From a bacterium (lineage in GTDB: Bacteria > Bacteroidota > Ignavibacteria > Kapaibacteriales > UBA7675), in contig JAUIKM010000007.1 in assembly GCA_030430495.1 (NCBI GenBank), positions 51,776-115,775 on the forward strand: a stretch of DNA of 64,000 bases. Reading direction: 5' to 3'. Both the position numbers and the translations under genes were made by a program. Shown piece by piece: positions 49,792 to 61,280 of the stretch (position 1 is its first letter; the number at the start of each line of letters is the position of its first letter). Below the pieces are notes generated by a model, which had not been told where the DNA came from, ran no database searches, and was given only the letters and a program-made list of their open reading frames with translations.

Positions 49792-50328
49792 ATGATTTCG
49801 AGTGTACGGAAGTACGGACTTTGGGGCGGCGCTGCTGCTTGTATTCTCATTCTGGCAACGTCCTCCACAATTGATTGGCAGGCCCTGCAGGCTGCGGCCG
49901 CCGGCGGCGAACCAGAATTTACAACAAGAGATGTTGTTCTGGGAATTTTGCGTTATCCCCTGATTATTGTTACGATCATTTTGGGCGTTCGTGCTCTTCG
50001 TCGGGAGCGCGCTCCACGGGGTATTAGTTTTGGCGAGGCGTTTAAGGCCGGTGCAATAATTTCAGCCATCGCGGCCGGATTTGTCATGCTGGCGCATATT
50101 ATTTACTACAGTGCGGTTGCGCCGGAATCGCTCGACATAATGTACAGCATGGGCGTTGCCACCGGCGAGCTGCAGGATGGGGAATTGCGCTGGTTTTTCC
50201 ACCCCCTGGTCCACTCGCTGTTTTACTTCTTCGAGACATTCGTTCTTGGCCTCTTCGTCAGCCTGATAAGCGGGCTGCTTTTTCGCGGTCGCACAAACGC
50301 CAAACCAGCCACTCCGGCTACCACCTGA
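49792..50328 (+). CDS. DUF4199-like membrane protein
   Basis: KYGL.GG, ISFGEAFKAG..IS pattern, 4 TM segments. Confidence 0.7.
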   Translation: MISSVRKYGLWGGAAACILILATSSTIDWQALQAAAAGGEPEFTTRDVVLGILRYPLIIVTIILGVRALRRERAPRGISFGEAFKAGAIISAIAAGFVMLAHIIYYSAVAPESLDIMYSMGVATGELQDGELRWFFHPLVHSLFYFFETFVLGLFVSLISGLLFRGRTNAKPATPATT

Positions 50329-56870: not shown

Positions 56871-57749
56871 CTAACGGCGTGCGATTACCACTGCGCGACT
56901 GACGCTCAGGTCAAAGACCTGAACCGCGCCGTCGTCTTTTGTGCGTTTCAGCACAAAGGCGATCAACTCGTCGGCGTCGAGCGCGTCGACCAGGCCGGAG
57001 TCCCGATGGAGTTTGTAGCGGCCGTTCATTTCCAGTTTGACGTCCTGCGGCGGAGAATCCTTGAACATCATCGCCATAAACCCTTCGCCCAGTTTCAGGT
57101 CGACATTTTCAGCGGCATAAACCACGCCGGTCTCATCGTAACTGTACACCATGTCGTAGTCGACAATAATATTAACCAGTCCGGCATCGACCGGTTCGTT
57201 GACATGCGTCTGCCACGAGCCGCCAGGCGCGACGTCCTGCTCGGGGTAGGGGAAGAAGAGATATTGGTCGAGCCCACCGACGATTGCCGCCAGTGCTTTG
57301 GCATCCGGACCCAACCGCGCCGGGTTGTCAAACTTGTCCCGCAACACCGTGTCCACAAAAGTGTAGCTGATGCAATGACCCTGTTCGTTTAAACAAAAGT
57401 CAATTTCCGTGCCTTTGAGCGAGGGCAAGGCGTAGGTCGTATCTACAGCGCCGCCTTGTTGGCTGTCCGTTTTCATCTTGCCGTCGACGACGATGTTGTT
57501 TAAAGTCACGCGCATTGTGCGGCAGTCTTTGTCCACGCCGGTATTTTCAACCTGCATATCGATCGCGTAATCAATGTCCGCGGCAAACTGCTCGACGCCG
57601 CTTTCATCTTTGCCCTGAATGACGACATTGATGTTTGCCTTGTAGTTTGCCGTTCCGTCGAGGACGACTTCAAAAGGGAGGTCGGCGGCATGGGCGCATA
57701 CAACCGTCAGAAAGGCGATTAAACTCACAGGCACTGAAGACAAATTCAT
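56871..57749 (-). CDS. secreted hypothetical protein
   Basis: Signal peptide (AHA-AD), YPEQ.V.PG.SW motif. Confidence 0.65.
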   Translation of the reverse strand: MNLSSVPVSLIAFLTVVCAHAADLPFEVVLDGTANYKANINVVIQGKDESGVEQFAADIDYAIDMQVENTGVDKDCRTMRVTLNNIVVDGKMKTDSQQGGAVDTTYALPSLKGTEIDFCLNEQGHCISYTFVDTVLRDKFDNPARLGPDAKALAAIVGGLDQYLFFPYPEQDVAPGGSWQTHVNEPVDAGLVNIIVDYDMVYSYDETGVVYAAENVDLKLGEGFMAMMFKDSPPQDVKLEMNGRYKLHRDSGLVDALDADELIAFVLKRTKDDGAVQVFDLSVSRAVVIARR

Positions 57750-58169
57750 GTTAACATCCTTTTGGTTCTTGCCGTCGAGGCGCTTGATATGACAGGTAGT
57801 TATCGTTGTTGCCGGACTGCCAGTCTGTTCTCAATGGAAATGCGGGCATTCGTGAACTTCACGCCATCCACCAGCATGAGTTGAGAATCTTCGACGGCTA
57901 CCGCAAAATGATTCTCCTCGTCGAACTGCACCGTCGTCGGCAGTTCCTGCGCCCAAATGGACTGCCGGCCGATTATTAACCACAGCAGCAGCACCGGCAA
58001 ACAGCATGTCATTCTTTGCACTGTTGTCCTCGTTTCCGTTCAATTCCGATCCACCCAATTTACTGATTTTATTGAGATTAGGACGCTTTCAGAGTGCTCA
58101 GGGCGGGGGGAGGTTCAATTGTTGGCGCGGTCGGCGCACAAAAAAAATATCTACTCCCTTATTTTTCGC

Positions 58170-58201
58170 TTGACTTGCGCTTGTCTACTGACTTATATTT
58201 G
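58170..58201 (+). promoter_or_regulatory. candidate promoter of the Y-RNA array/rsr operon
   Basis: TTGACT-18 nt-TATATTTG, fitting both a -35/-10 spacing and the TAnnTTTG element. Confidence 0.45.
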
Positions 58202-58419
58202 CATCGTTGATTTGACGCGGGGCGCATTGCCTGATAAATTCCTCTTGAATTTTCTTGTTAGTCCCGCAGTAAAAAGTCAACAGTTTTTAAGTCGGTCGCT
58301 CATTCGGCGAGTTAACAACAGGTGCGCCGGCGTCCGGTACGAAAATTTGCATGTCTCTTAAAACAGGGGAGGCTATACGATGATTCATTTTGATGTTCAG
58401 CCGCAATAATTGCAATACC

Positions 58420-58519
58420 GGCGTCCGGCGCGGATAATGGTTACTTCGCATGGAGCAACGGACTACCTAATCCGTCCCGAGGTTCGATTCCTCATACCAT
58501 TCCAAATTTTACCGACGCC
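58420..58519 (+). ncRNA. Y-RNA-like gene 1 (anticodon-arm plus T-arm insert)
   Basis: GGCGTC(C)GG/CCGACGCC bulged-C helix, AATGGT/ACCATT helix, TACTTCG, GAGG-TTCGATT-CCTC T-arm. Confidence 0.8.
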
Positions 58520-58557
58520 TTTGTTTAAGCGCGGCTGATTGCTCAACAGCGACAATT

Positions 58558-58684
58558 TGCACCCGGCGCTGAAAACGGTTACTTCGACTGTCACTCGATG
58601 TGGGTTCGACTCCCACCCGGAGCGGGGTTTCCCGCCCGGCGGCTCGTCCGGCAGAGCCGACTCCGTTTTCCATTTTCCGGTGCA
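58558..58684 (+). ncRNA. Y-RNA-like gene 2, YrlA-type tRNA mimic
   Basis: TGCACC(C)GG/CCGGTGCA, GAAAACGG/CCGTTTTC, TACTTCG, T-arm GTGGG-TTCGACT-CCCAC, closed acceptor-like stem, D-arm GGCTC..GG..GAGCC. Confidence 0.88.
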
Positions 58685-58691
58685 GCGTTAT

Positions 58692-58809
58692 TTGCGTCCG
58701 GCGTTCGAGGTCGGTTACTTCGAACCCGGGCCCCATCGGGATCTTTTGCAGGTCCGGATGGGGCCCGTGGCAAGATCACCAAATGACTGCCTTACATTTC
58801 CCGACGCAA
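58692..58809 (+). ncRNA. Y-RNA-like gene 3 (long-hairpin insert)
   Basis: TTGCGTC(C)GG/CCGACGCAA, CGGTTA/TGACTG, TACTTCG, CGGGCCCCATC/GATGGGGCCCG. Confidence 0.8.
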
Positions 58810-59028
58810 TGTATTGTTGCCGCGCAGCAGAAAAACGCCCAACGAAAAGAACAGAACCGCAGTCACACTGACTTAAACTGTTCAGTCCGCATACAAACCG
58901 CACAGGTCTTGCATCCGACCGTCAATGCGTCGGCATCTGCGCTCAAAACTGCACGTGCCGCCTGACAACCTGCATTAACATGTTGATTGAATGCGGCCAG
59001 GTCCTGTCTGTTTGCCGCATCAGTCAAT

Positions 59029-59151
59029 GTTGCGTCCGGCGTCTGGAGACAGCTACTTCGAACTGAGGCCCTTGCGCGGCTCTGCGAGCCGCGCATGTTG
59101 GTAAGTTTCTGGATTGATACAATCCGCTGTTTTCGCCTTTTCCGGCGCAAC
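59029..59151 (+). ncRNA. Y-RNA-like gene 4 (two-hairpin insert)
   Basis: GTTGCGTC(C)GG/CCGGCGCAAC, GAGACAGC/GCTGTTTT, TACTTCG, TGCGCGGCTC/GAGCCGCGCA, GGATTG/CAATCC. Confidence 0.8.
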
Positions 59152-59222
59152 TTTTTGCCAGGTTGACATTGGCGTTCAGCGATGTTGAATTCACGTTGAA
59201 CTCGATGCGCGATCCCAGGACT

Positions 59223-59325
59223 CAACGCCCGGCGATTGAAATGGATACTTCGGTATAGAGCACCGGACTGTTCCGGCGGGACGTCGTTCCCATTCGCATG
59301 CCATTTCTACTTTTTTCCGGCGTTG
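59223..59325 (+). ncRNA. Y-RNA-like gene 5 (tRNA-fragment insert)
   Basis: CAACGCC(C)GG/CCGGCGTTG, GAAATGG/CCATTTC, TACTTCG, TAGAGCA-CCGGA-ctgt-TCCGG. Confidence 0.8.
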
Positions 59326-59366
59326 TTTGATTCCGCTGATACAGAAGATTGTATTGCATCGACTTT

Positions 59367-59501
59367 GTTAAACACATCCGGCGCAGATGACGGATACTTC
59401 GACTACGTCCACGTGGGTTCGAATCCCACTCGCCGCAGCCCCGTCTGCAGCGATGCTTTTGGTGAAGCAGAAACCGTTGTTGTTTTTCCGATGTGTTTAA
59501 C
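59367..59501 (+). ncRNA. Y-RNA-like gene 6, YrlA-type tRNA mimic
   Basis: GTTAAACACATC(C)GG/CCGATGTGTTTAAC, GATGACGG/CCGTTGTT, TACTTCG, T-arm GTGGG-TTCGAAT-CCCAC, closed acceptor-like stem, D-arm TGCTT-TTGGTG-AAGCA. Confidence 0.88.
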
Positions 59502-59671
59502 AGTTTAACACTGAAAGCTTGCACTGTCCGGCCGATCGATTCTCGTACAGAGACGAACAAAAAAATCATGTCAGAAAGGTGGGTACGAATGTAGCCGCCC
59601 GGATTTATTGCGCTGTTAAAACGATCAAATCGGTCGTGGACGACGATGCGCACATCGCATAGGAGGCCGTC

Positions 59672-61177
59672 ATGGCTCGATTTAACACTATTGCCTCGGT
59701 GCCGACTGTTGAAAACCTTGCAGGAGGCAACGTATTCCCGATTTCGCCGCGACGCGAATTTGTTTTTCTCGTGCTGACGTCGCTGATGCAGGATACGTTC
59801 TACGAGAAAGCGGATGTGCGCATGGCCCGATTGCGCGAGTTGATTCCGCTCGTGGGCCGCCGCTTTGCGGCACAAACGGCCATGTACGCACGTCACGAAC
59901 TGGGCCTGCGCAGCGTCAGCCACGTCATTGCGGCTCTGCTGCCGTCGGTGACGGAGAATTCTCTGTCATACGGCGGAAGCGATTTTTTCCGCCAGGTCGT
60001 GCGCCGCCCGGACGATATGACGGAAATCATGGCCGCGTTTGAGATGTTTAACAAATCCTCGGCAGGGGATAAACTTAAACTCCCGTGGGCGCTGCGTCGC
60101 GGTTTTGCCGCGGCGTTTAACAAGTTCGACGAATACCAACTGGCCAAATACCGCGGCGAAGGCAAAGCCTGGACCCTGCTCGACGTCATGCGTTTGGTGC
60201 ACGCCAAACCGACGGAAGCAAATGCGGATGCGTTGGCAAAACTGGCGGCGGGCGAACTGCGCTCCACCTCTACCTGGGAAGCGCGCCTTTCCGCCGGTGA
60301 GGACAAAGCGCTCGTCTGGCGTGAACTCGTCGAAGGCGGACAACTGGGAATGATGGCTTTGCTGCGCAACCTGCGCAACATGGCCGAACAATGTGAGGAA
60401 TCCACGTGGCTCGCAGCGCTGGAGCAATTGTCCAACGCCGAACGCGTGCGCGCCTCGCTGATCATGCCTTTTCGTTTTCTGACGGCGTCCAAAGTCATCG
60501 AGTTCTCGCGCATGGCCGCCGCGCGTAAAGCAGGCGCGCTGGAGGCTCTGTCCGCAGCACTCGAACACTCGCTGGCCAACGTGCCGGAACTCGGCGGGCG
60601 CACGCTTGTGGCGGTCGACATTTCCGGCTCGATGAGCCAACCGCTTGCAGCCATGTCGCGCGCTACCGCCGTCGACGTCGCCTCGCTGTTCGGCGCGGTG
60701 ATGGCCAAAAACATGCGGGCCGAGCTGATGGCTTTTGCCAGTAATGCAGGTTTTGTGCGCTTCTCTTCGGCCGACTCCCTGCCGACGATCGCCGAATGCA
60801 TTAAAACCGGCAGCGGCGCGGGCATCAAAGGCTGGGGCACCTGCGCTCCGGCCATCCTGGAGAAACTGCTGCGCGGCAAACACGCCTTTGATCGCGTTGT
60901 GATTATCTCCGATATGCAGACCTGGCAACACAGCGATTTCGGCAACGGCGACTTCCAACCCCTGTGGCACCGCTACCGGCGGCGGATAGCGCCGACGGCC
61001 AGGCTGTTCACGATCGACATTTGCGGGTACGGGCACTCGCTTGTACCCGAGCACAATGTCGCCGCCGTGGCCGGCTGGTCGGATCGAATCTTCACGTTCA
61101 TGTCGATGCTCGACAAAGAGCCCAAATCAATTGAACGGACGATTGAGGCCGCATTCCCGCTCGCAGACGGCAACTGA
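59672..61177 (+). CDS. rsr: Ro60-related protein (TROVE plus vWA/MIDAS)
   Basis: NLAGG..F, YQLAKYR, TWE..LS, LGMMALLRNLRN, PFRF, DISGSM MIDAS, ISDMQ, GWSD..F; AGGAGG RBS. Confidence 0.92.
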   Translation: MARFNTIASVPTVENLAGGNVFPISPRREFVFLVLTSLMQDTFYEKADVRMARLRELIPLVGRRFAAQTAMYARHELGLRSVSHVIAALLPSVTENSLSYGGSDFFRQVVRRPDDMTEIMAAFEMFNKSSAGDKLKLPWALRRGFAAAFNKFDEYQLAKYRGEGKAWTLLDVMRLVHAKPTEANADALAKLAAGELRSTSTWEARLSAGEDKALVWRELVEGGQLGMMALLRNLRNMAEQCEESTWLAALEQLSNAERVRASLIMPFRFLTASKVIEFSRMAAARKAGALEALSAALEHSLANVPELGGRTLVAVDISGSMSQPLAAMSRATAVDVASLFGAVMAKNMRAELMAFASNAGFVRFSSADSLPTIAECIKTGSGAGIKGWGTCAPAILEKLLRGKHAFDRVVIISDMQTWQHSDFGNGDFQPLWHRYRRRIAPTARLFTIDICGYGHSLVPEHNVAAVAGWSDRIFTFMSMLDKEPKSIERTIEAAFPLADGN

Positions 61178-61184
61178 TCGACAA

Positions 61185-61228
61185 AACCGCCGCGCGGACT
61201 ACCAAAGTCGCGCGGCGGTTGGTATTTT
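61185..61228 (+). terminator. terminator-like hairpin after rsr
   Basis: AACCGCCGCGCG-gactaccaaagt-CGCGCGGCGGTT then GGTATTTT. Confidence 0.6.
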
Positions 61229-61280
61229 AAAGGCCCGGCGATCGTCAAAGCAAAAAACAGGAGAAGGATGGGAACCCGGA

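Follow-up and report, generated by a model that had tools for sequence, protein, structure and literature searches.

Six tandem Y RNA-like units upstream of a divergent Ro60 gene in a Kapaibacteriales genome

The window analysed here, a 64 kb stretch of contig JAUIKM010000007.1 from a bacterium of the order Kapaibacteriales, contains a gene, rsr, that encodes an orthologue of the protein Ro60, and the 1.25 kb 5′ of this gene holds six units of 100–135 nt (U1 to U6, together spanning 58420–59501), all of them on the + strand and lying 171–1252 nt upstream of rsr. A first-pass annotation, made from the letters alone, had picked out six same-strand units in this region, and all six are found where it placed them. 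It had also described a shared layout, in which a terminal helix with a bulged C is followed by GG, CG, a second helix, TACTTCG, and a variable domain, and this too is borne out: the pattern CCGGCG-N8-16-TACTTCG occurs six times in the window (at 58425, 58563, 58698, 59036, 59229, and 59378, always on the + strand) versus 0.03 matches expected, and not one of 100 shuffled sequences reaches six. Across the 5.6 Mb genome the same pattern has 13 matches (11 forward and 2 reverse), with one forward and one reverse match for a reversed control pattern; the seven that lie outside the array are scattered singletons, none is recovered by a covariance model designated R1, and the six array units are all that this model finds in the window's own genome. 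We considered the array as coding sequence and ruled this out, with no Pfam match in any of six open reading frames (ORFs) tested (90–233 aa), of which five overlap the array and one (57957–58361) covers the promoter-like site and leader ahead of it. ARAGORN reports no tRNA gene at 57500–60000 and none in the whole window, and the Rfam tRNA model gives a score of 18.6 bits, on the T-arm of U6 only.

All six units have the same anatomy (Table 1). In the 5′ half, helix 1 (6–12 bp) is followed by one bulged C, GG, CG plus 1–5 nt, helix 2 (5–9 bp), and (U/A/C)UACUUCG; the 3′ half consists of a head of 48–84 nt, the 3′ strand of helix 2, a pyrimidine-rich tract of 5–10 nt, CC, and the 3′ strand of helix 1. 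Helix 1 with its bulged C and the GG/CC pairs is present in six of the six. The stem pairs listed in the first-pass annotation are correct, both the shorter ones (GCGTC/GACGC, GCACC/GGTGC, ACGCC/GGCGT, and ACATC/GATGT) and the longer ones (GAAAACGG/CCGTTTTC, GAAATGG/CCATTTC, and GAGACAGC/GCTGTTTT). The heads are of different classes: those of U2 and U6 follow a permuted, YrlA-like order, that of U1 has an anticodon-arm-like hairpin and a T-arm, and those of U3–U5 are hairpins with no tRNA features. The array is made up of paralogous units that have only a core in common and carry different heads; we refer to this core, with the helices around it, as the putative docking module. Minimum free energy (MFE) folds reproduce the common layout for U2, U4, U5, and U6, and are better than those of shuffled sequences for U2, U3, U4, and U6 (z -3.3 to -7.1). 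When RNAduplex was used to place unit boundaries, in 6 of 24 cases it ran helices too far or joined them to an adjacent unit, and there the boundaries were taken from the sequence by eye.

The first-pass annotation had argued that compensatory changes among the stems are a mark of selection on RNA structure, and alignment of the units upholds this. We compared 12 units, the six of the window's genome (G000) and their six orthologues in a genome of the same genus (G001), and found that 91.2% of the cells in the two helices pair, versus 38–55% when the 3′ partners are slid by one to three columns, and that 11 of 17 pairs show a two-sided change; for helix 1 alone, 90% of the cells pair and six of ten pairs change on both sides. 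The covariation score of this alignment is 0.506, versus 0.25 for shuffles, and none of 500 shuffles reaches it. There are further examples in which pairing is kept between the two genomes, including a head hairpin of U5 that changes on both sides from CCGGA/UCCGG to CCGGG/CCCGG, a head hairpin of U4 that is maintained through two wobble changes, and an A-U to G-C change in stem 1 of U6.

The product of rsr is itself well supported as a Ro60. The ORF has Pfam matches to TROVE (2.9e-28) and vWA_Ro60 (1.6e-7), both above the cutoffs, and its translation contains a DxSGS MIDAS-like motif in the vWA domain. A profile of four orthologues aligns over nearly the full length of solved Ro60 structures, with E values of 2.1e-38 for that of Thermus phage phiLo, 2e-14 for Deinococcus radiodurans Rsr, and 1.1e-13 for Xenopus Ro60. 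The NCBIfam Rsr equivalog model gives only 33.6 bits against a cutoff of 900, and the gene therefore belongs to a divergent Ro60 clade.

Searching with a Ro60 profile, and taking one genome per species, we obtained 80 loci in which Ro60 is 34–42% identical to that of the window, with a single one at 94%. Their record titles include Saprospiraceae and other Bacteroidota, Opitutaceae and other Verrucomicrobiota, Sericytochromatia, SAR202, and others, and the same layout lies beside Ro60 in records labelled with at least four phyla. The nearest Ro60 relatives are in Saprospiraceae-labelled records, which fits a Bacteroidota origin, as does the DUF4199 protein encoded at 49792–50328 of the window; the locus with 94% identity is labelled as another phylum, so that the labels of close relatives disagree. 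In the 80 loci TACTTCG is frequent upstream of Ro60 on its strand and rare on the opposite strand, and 122 of 186 exact TACTTCG sites upstream of Ro60 reach at least 13 of 14 pairs in the two-helix layout, versus 10 of 2340 random positions. This count comes from a strict scanner, used in place of an earlier one that was too lax (27% of random positions reached 13 of 14). A comparison of each unit's own stem with swapped stems was also dropped (own mean 13.46 of 14, swapped 11.89, with 123 of 510 swapped comparisons reaching at least 13), because with G-U pairs allowed and a search space of 150 nt it does not discriminate.

The first-pass annotation had proposed building a covariance model and scanning the flanks of TROVE genes, and we have done both. 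Model R2 was built from 65 units (the six of the window, four of the related genome G009, and 55 chosen for perfect pairing), and when both strands of the 680 kb in the window and the 80 loci are searched with it at E≤0.01, there are 239 matches; every one is on the Ro60 strand, and all but one (238) are upstream of Ro60. A held-out set of 79 matches, from 33 loci with no sequence in the model, repeats the covariation: 88.4% of the cells pair versus 43–54% when slid, 18 of 18 pairs change on both sides, and 87.9% of the helix 1 cells are paired. Per-locus numbers were taken from the 58 sources whose upstream sequence is 2 kb or longer, among which no units are found in three loci, one in five, two in 14, three in five, four in ten, five in 14, six in six, and seven in one (median 4, maximum 7); these are lower bounds, because R2 finds only five of the six window units. 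Since arrays of four to seven are common in this Ro60 clade, the six copies of the window are near the top of the range and are not unique. A phylum-wide scan with R2 was not used as a census; 14 of 151 genomes match, but the window's own genome scores zero under the stricter filters and the scan is for that reason too insensitive.

Comparison with particular relatives shows both how stable the array is and how the core varies. In G001, whose Ro60 is 94% identical, all six units are present in unchanged order, and identity between the two genomes is 88.2% in the units (626/710) and 76.8% in the spacers (420/547). G009 and G019, which belong to another family of this order, have a Ro60 that is 41% identical and also carry six units each upstream of rsr, in the layout of the window, but their docking core has instead a bulged U, AG/CU, and then YGA; the units carry UUACUUCG, except that one unit in each genome has AUACAUCG in its place. 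The core is thus C-GG-CG/CC in six of six units of G000 and six of six of G001, and U-AG-YGA/CU in six of six units of G009 and six of six of G019. Such uniformity within a genome and difference between lineages is as expected from co-evolution with one shared protein, and we suppose that the uniform core reflects co-evolution with the single Ro60 of each genome.

The closest known relatives of the units are the YrlA RNAs (RF02553), which Chen et al. 2014 describe from Salmonella Typhimurium, Mycobacterium smegmatis, and some 250 further species. The Rfam check suggested by the first-pass annotation does return YrlA, both on U2 and in relatives, but none of the matches reaches the gathering score of 69; in G009 and G019, four of the six units per locus match with 28.1–46.3 bits (E 1.5e-7 to 0.03). 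In the cmscan alignment, stem 1 corresponds to the YrlA stem with the GNCGAA motif of the Rsr site and stem 2 to the stem after it, UUAC falls at the conserved YUAY, and UUCG is an insertion; at the position aligned to GNCGAA these relatives have AG(U/C)GA. As to the permuted tRNA-like domain, U2 aligns to the YrlA model over its full length (T, AS, and D parts), U6 shows this order when read by eye, U1 has the T-arm only, and U3–U5 have none of these parts. Matches that are sub-threshold and yet align part by part point to a homologous branch that the curated Rfam model does not capture. Like YrlA, the units lie upstream of rsr on the same strand, their termini pair into a stem with the Rsr-binding region, a second stem precedes YUAY (here UUAC or AUAC), and the heads of U2 and U6 look like permuted tRNA mimics (T-arm, closed acceptor-like hairpin, and D-like arm). 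Unlike YrlA, they have C-GG-CG in the window and (C/U)-AG-(U/C)GA in relatives in place of GNCGAAN0-1G, an extra near-invariant UUCG after UUAC, no tRNA-like head in half of the window units, and six copies per locus.

Other Ro60-associated RNAs offer more distant parallels. The available part of Chen 2014 (PMC4201824) lists 355 YrlA-like RNAs in 276 genomes (254 bacteria and 22 phages), and describes bacterial Y RNAs as encoded upstream of rsr on the same strand and made from polycistronic precursors, with at least two in each of three characterised species. The first-pass annotation had put the characterised loci at about two Y RNAs and had allowed that multi-copy loci might already be catalogued, which is consistent with these numbers and with the arrays of four to seven seen here. 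As far as the D. radiodurans rsr locus is described in the available part of Chen 2014, it resembles the window in having several small RNAs upstream (Yrn1, Yrn2, and RNAs a, b, and d), a polycistronic precursor, and some T-arm-like elements, but the Ro-binding stem is present in only two of its five RNAs, as against six of six here, and a true tRNA gene lies inside it, whereas none is found in the window array. Thermus phage phiLo, whose Ro60 is the closest solved structure to the rsr product, also has Y-RNA-like genes upstream, but according to the available part of the NAR 2025 paper (PMC12135203) these are two RNAs (Yrl1 and Yrl2) in a phage context, found through a CGAA motif. Metazoan Y RNAs are similar in size, in the terminal stem with a single bulged C, and in the pyrimidine-rich 3′ side, and GUCCG in U1, U3, and U4 reproduces five bases of the seven-base GGUCCGA to which Xenopus Ro60 makes contact (as quoted in the available part of Chen 2014, PMC4201824); there is no sequence homology beyond GUCCG, and the window units differ in their bacterial operon context and tRNA-like heads. 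A literature search found no description of a bacterial rsr array with more than two to five small RNAs, although the supplements of Chen 2014 may tabulate larger ones, and a search for UACUUCG returned unrelated siRNA sequences only and no description of such a signature.

We conclude that the six units in the 1.3 kb upstream of rsr are very probably paralogous genes for Y RNAs, members of a divergent subfamily related to YrlA, each with a putative Ro60-docking module, because of the Y-RNA layout beside Ro60, the covariation of both helices, and the homology to YrlA. The same grounds support the first-pass view of the units as Y-RNA-like genes of Ro60. In size, too, the units (100–135 nt) are in keeping with Y RNAs, for which about 80–130 nt with a large internal loop or module is usual. 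Rfam has no model of its own for this subfamily. Several observations weigh against it. An Rfam scan of the window yields no family at its gathering score, and the best match is YrlA on U2 only, at 19.7 bits and E 0.47 over the full length; the published GNCGAAN0-1G motif is literally absent from the window units, which have GGCG followed by C, U, or A. R2 misses U4 at E≤0.01, and for U1 and U5 the MFE fold does not stand out from those of shuffles (z -0.93 and -1.59). The held-out alignment (A6) was fitted to the model, which favours pairing, and in the R2 training alignment (A4) 55 of 65 sequences were picked for perfect pairing, which makes 14 of the 18 pairs circular in that alignment; nor are the loci independent samples, since close relatives are among them. 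A metatranscriptome run (X1) with 8% of sampled words present speaks neither for nor against expression of the units: two 151-nt contigs that are 100% identical to the window (at 59656–59806 and 59989–60138, and possibly due to DNA carry-over) lie on rsr only and none lies on the units, but such libraries and contigs easily lose small structured RNAs.

Table 1. Features of the rsr locus, in window coordinates; each head lies within its unit, R1 and R2 are covariance models, and identities are to G001
Feature	Position	Strand	Description	Head	Scores
DUF4199 protein	49792-50328				
Promoter-like site	58170..58199	+	TTGACT-18-TATATT, 10/12 consensus matches		
Leader	58226..58417	+	between promoter-like site and U1; 58226-58300 conserved, 58301-58417 diverged		
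U1	58420..58519	+	stem 1 GGCGUC/GACGCC, bulged C, GG/CC, stem 2 AAUGG/CCAUU, UUACUUCG	anticodon-arm-like hairpin, then T-arm (GAGG-UUCGAUU-CCUC)	R1 75.8 bits, R2 29.2 bits; 89.4% identical to orthologue
U2	58558..58684	+	stem 1 UGCACC/GGUGCA, bulged C, GG/CC, stem 2 GAAAACGG/CCGUUUUC, UUACUUCG	YrlA-type, permuted tRNA-like: V hairpin, T-arm, closed acceptor-like hairpin, D-like arm	R2 61.9 bits; MFE -57.9, z -3.31
U3	58692..58809	+	stem 1 UUGCGUC/GACGCAA, bulged C, GG/CC, stem 2 with one mismatch, UUACUUCG	long hairpin and short hairpin; no T-arm, no tRNA-like motif	R2 31.7 bits; MFE z -7.09
Long hairpin	58980..59030	+	directly 5′ of U4, in the 218-nt U3-U4 spacer; without Y-RNA motif		MFE -22.8, z -4.98
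U4	59029..59151	+	stem 1 GUUGCGUC/GGCGCAAC (with G-U pairs), bulged C, GG/CC, stem 2 GGAGACAGC/GCUGUUUUC, CUACUUCG	two hairpins, without T-arm	R1 79.6 bits; MFE z -4.90
U5	59223..59325	+	stem 1 CAACGCC/GGCGUUG, bulged C, GG/CC, stem 2 GAAAUGG/CCAUUUC, AUACUUCG (able to fold as its own small hairpin)	two short hairpins	R2 30.8 bits; MFE z -1.59
U6	59367..59501	+	long stem 1 GUUAAACACAUC/GAUGUGUUUAAC, bulged C, GG/CC, stem 2 GAUGACGG/CCGUUGUU, AUACUUCG	YrlA-type: T-arm GUGGG-UUCGAAU-CCCAC, closed hairpin, D-like arm (order read by eye)	R2 58.4 bits; MFE z -3.49
rsr	59672..61177	+	Ro60 orthologue, 501 aa; TROVE ring and vWA domain; preceded by AGGAGG		
Terminator-like hairpin	61185..61229	+	GC-rich, U-rich tail, after rsr		MFE -28.1, z -6.15

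The transcript context of the array bears on whether its products are RNAs in their own right. The block at 58145–58225 around the promoter-like site is 93.8% identical to G001, as compared with 37% in the 62 nt directly upstream; we regard this site as a candidate promoter for the array and rsr together. Identity in the leader is 82.7% at 58226–58300 and 59.8% at 58301–58417, and its fold (58226–58417) is no better than that of shuffles (z -0.18). The hairpin that follows rsr is likely to be the 3′ end of the operon. The units could accordingly be seen as cis-acting elements of a long rsr leader, for example tandem attenuators or autoregulatory protein-binding sites, and not as stand-alone RNAs: there is one clear promoter-like site ahead of the array, no terminator-like site with a convincing U-tract is seen between units, and the spacers are partly conserved, including the long hairpin before U4. 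We nevertheless consider this explanation very unlikely. The two ends of each unit pair with one another, with covariation, so as to close it on itself; copy number ranges from zero to seven between loci, which would be unusual for a leader; and, according to the available part of Chen 2014 (PMC4201824), the homologous YrlA and Yrn RNAs are processed from just such precursors into stable Rsr-bound RNAs, the Y RNAs of D. radiodurans and M. smegmatis among them. As to the spacers themselves, the long hairpin is near-invariant between G000 and G001, as is a second block at 58817–58899, and both blocks are more conserved than parts of the units; they may be a processing signal or another small RNA or element.

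The tRNA-like features of the units are more varied among the relatives than in the window. In some relatives the two strands of helix 2 enclose a tRNA-like cloverleaf in native order (L059:260-405, L059:492-639, L096:3168-3302, L037:2554-2691, and L078:1124-1251), in which UACUUCG forms the 5′ strand of a mismatched acceptor stem and which ARAGORN calls as tRNAs (Val, Phe, Leu, Met, and Asn). To judge from these sequences, one docking module would thus be joined to tRNA mimics in two topologies. A different head, with no tRNA features, recurs in Verrucomicrobiota-labelled loci (L066:3466-3614, L087:2285-2432, and L103:3388-3537) with the core CCCGUGCC...GCUGCGAAAACGAGCGCC...GGGAAGGGCUCCAG, which suggests that there are distinct conserved head classes within the arrays. 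Authentic tRNA genes are also common at these loci: among 57 related loci whose upstream sequence is 2 kb or longer, at least five tRNA genes lie on the Ro60 strand in 37, at least ten in 24, and 30 in one, and none of the 57 has a tRNA gene on the opposite strand. Examples with tRNA arrays up to 4 kb upstream of Ro60 are L037, L039, L059, L078, L081, L096, and L102; in the window and its same-genus relative there is no tRNA gene upstream of Ro60. In archaea a TROVE gene is present in 20 of 29 tRNA gene clusters, as given in the available part of Morgado and Vicente 2019 (PMC6333295), which makes no mention of Y RNAs. The 37 bacterial loci resemble these clusters, with Ro60 and its Y-RNA array following 5–30 same-strand tRNA genes, and the window, with no tRNA gene, does not.

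With such heads the units might be genuine small RNAs that act without Ro60, for instance as tRNA decoys or as sponges for tRNA-binding enzymes, the adjacency to rsr being a matter of co-regulation only. Enzymes of tRNA metabolism could indeed bind the tRNA-like heads, as they recognise the tRNA-like head of YrlA (Chen 2014, PMC4201824, in the part available), but this is a quite improbable account of the array as a whole: the part common to all six units, including those with no tRNA feature, is the bulged helix that matches the Rsr-binding region of YrlA, and 238 of the 239 R2 matches are immediately upstream of a Ro60 gene. It is less probable again that a former array of tRNA genes has decayed into the units and that these now serve no function. 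The frequency of same-strand tRNA arrays at related loci (37 of 57) would fit such an origin, as would the tRNA calls made by ARAGORN on some relatives' units and the T-arms of U1, U2, and U6, but the window has no tRNA gene according to ARAGORN, half of its units lack any tRNA feature, and a docking module that is not tRNA-like has been kept in all six with compensatory changes, in units that are more conserved than their spacers. Copies of a small mobile or repetitive element (of the REP or MITE type) would also be repeated units of about 100 nt with complementary inverted termini, but this can be practically dismissed, as R1 finds no copy elsewhere in the 5.6 Mb genome, the paralogues have only the core in common, their order is conserved in G001, and the layout recurs beside Ro60 in records labelled with at least four phyla.

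Returning to the units as Y RNAs of Ro60, we can sketch how the locus might work. The current view of bacterial Y RNAs is a modular one, with one part docking on Ro60 and the other recruiting an effector such as PNPase or mimicking tRNA; few of them have been studied, in most cases two from a species, and vertebrates have two to four per species. The array and rsr would be transcribed together, from the promoter-like site to the terminator-like hairpin, and the precursor would then be cut into RNAs of 100–135 nt, as in D. radiodurans and M. smegmatis. Each RNA would close its 5′ and 3′ ends into the docking module, consisting of helix 1, the bulged C, and GG/CC, and continuing through an asymmetric internal loop with a pyrimidine-rich 3′ side to helix 2 and UACUUCG; this module is presumably the Ro60-binding site. 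By analogy with characterised Y RNAs, each head might bring a different partner or class of substrate to the single Ro60 ring, or gate the cavity of the ring differently, so that the heads may have separate functions. The near-invariance of UACUUCG across phyla and all head types points to a ligand that all of them have in common, which could be Ro60 or else a conserved factor of the host.

Looking beyond the six-copy locus of the window, we see the subfamily and its arrays as the more general result. The heads found in the subfamily include permuted tRNA mimics, native-order tRNA-like cloverleaves, and plain hairpins. As a tentative proposal, which we would place somewhat short of probable, this is an undescribed Y-RNA subfamily, present in at least four labelled phyla, that combines a constant docking module ending in UACUUCG with interchangeable heads and forms arrays of up to seven upstream of divergent Ro60 genes, mostly at the end of large same-strand tRNA arrays; it might serve as a natural adapter library through which one Ro60 ring is connected to several RNA-processing partners or substrates, possibly within a mobile island for tRNA supply or surveillance. 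Six paralogues with one docking module and varied heads amount to a natural experiment on head function, for which the related loci provide a comparison set of about 240 units, and the bulged helix, second helix, and UACUUCG make a searchable signature for a subfamily that the Rfam YrlA threshold misses. Because the docking core is uniform in each genome but lineage-specific, co-evolution of RNA and protein is open to test, and the frequent adjacency to tRNA arrays ties the biology of Ro60 and Y RNAs to tRNA supply or surveillance.

The regions flanking the array show some additional features. Within 58301–58417 there is a mini-ORF of 9–10 codons behind GGAGG, with a counterpart in L024 at about 3500–3430 (minus strand); the peptides of the two same-genus genomes differ except for a D-x-Q-P ending, and the mini-ORF may be either a chance occurrence or a leader peptide. 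In the two relatives of another family (L025 at about 7010–6955 and L026 at about 6395–6335, both minus strand) a terminator-like hairpin and U-run lie between the promoter-like site and the first unit, and could be a point at which read-through into the array is controlled; the window shows no evident hairpin of this kind. A neighbourhood with RtcB and RtcA, as in Salmonella, is not seen within about 14 kb upstream and 3 kb downstream of the locus, where the neighbouring genes encode a histidine kinase, mannose-6-phosphate isomerase, a LuxR-type regulator, a DUF4199 protein, a P-type ATPase, CtaA, a Na/H exchanger, and CorA.

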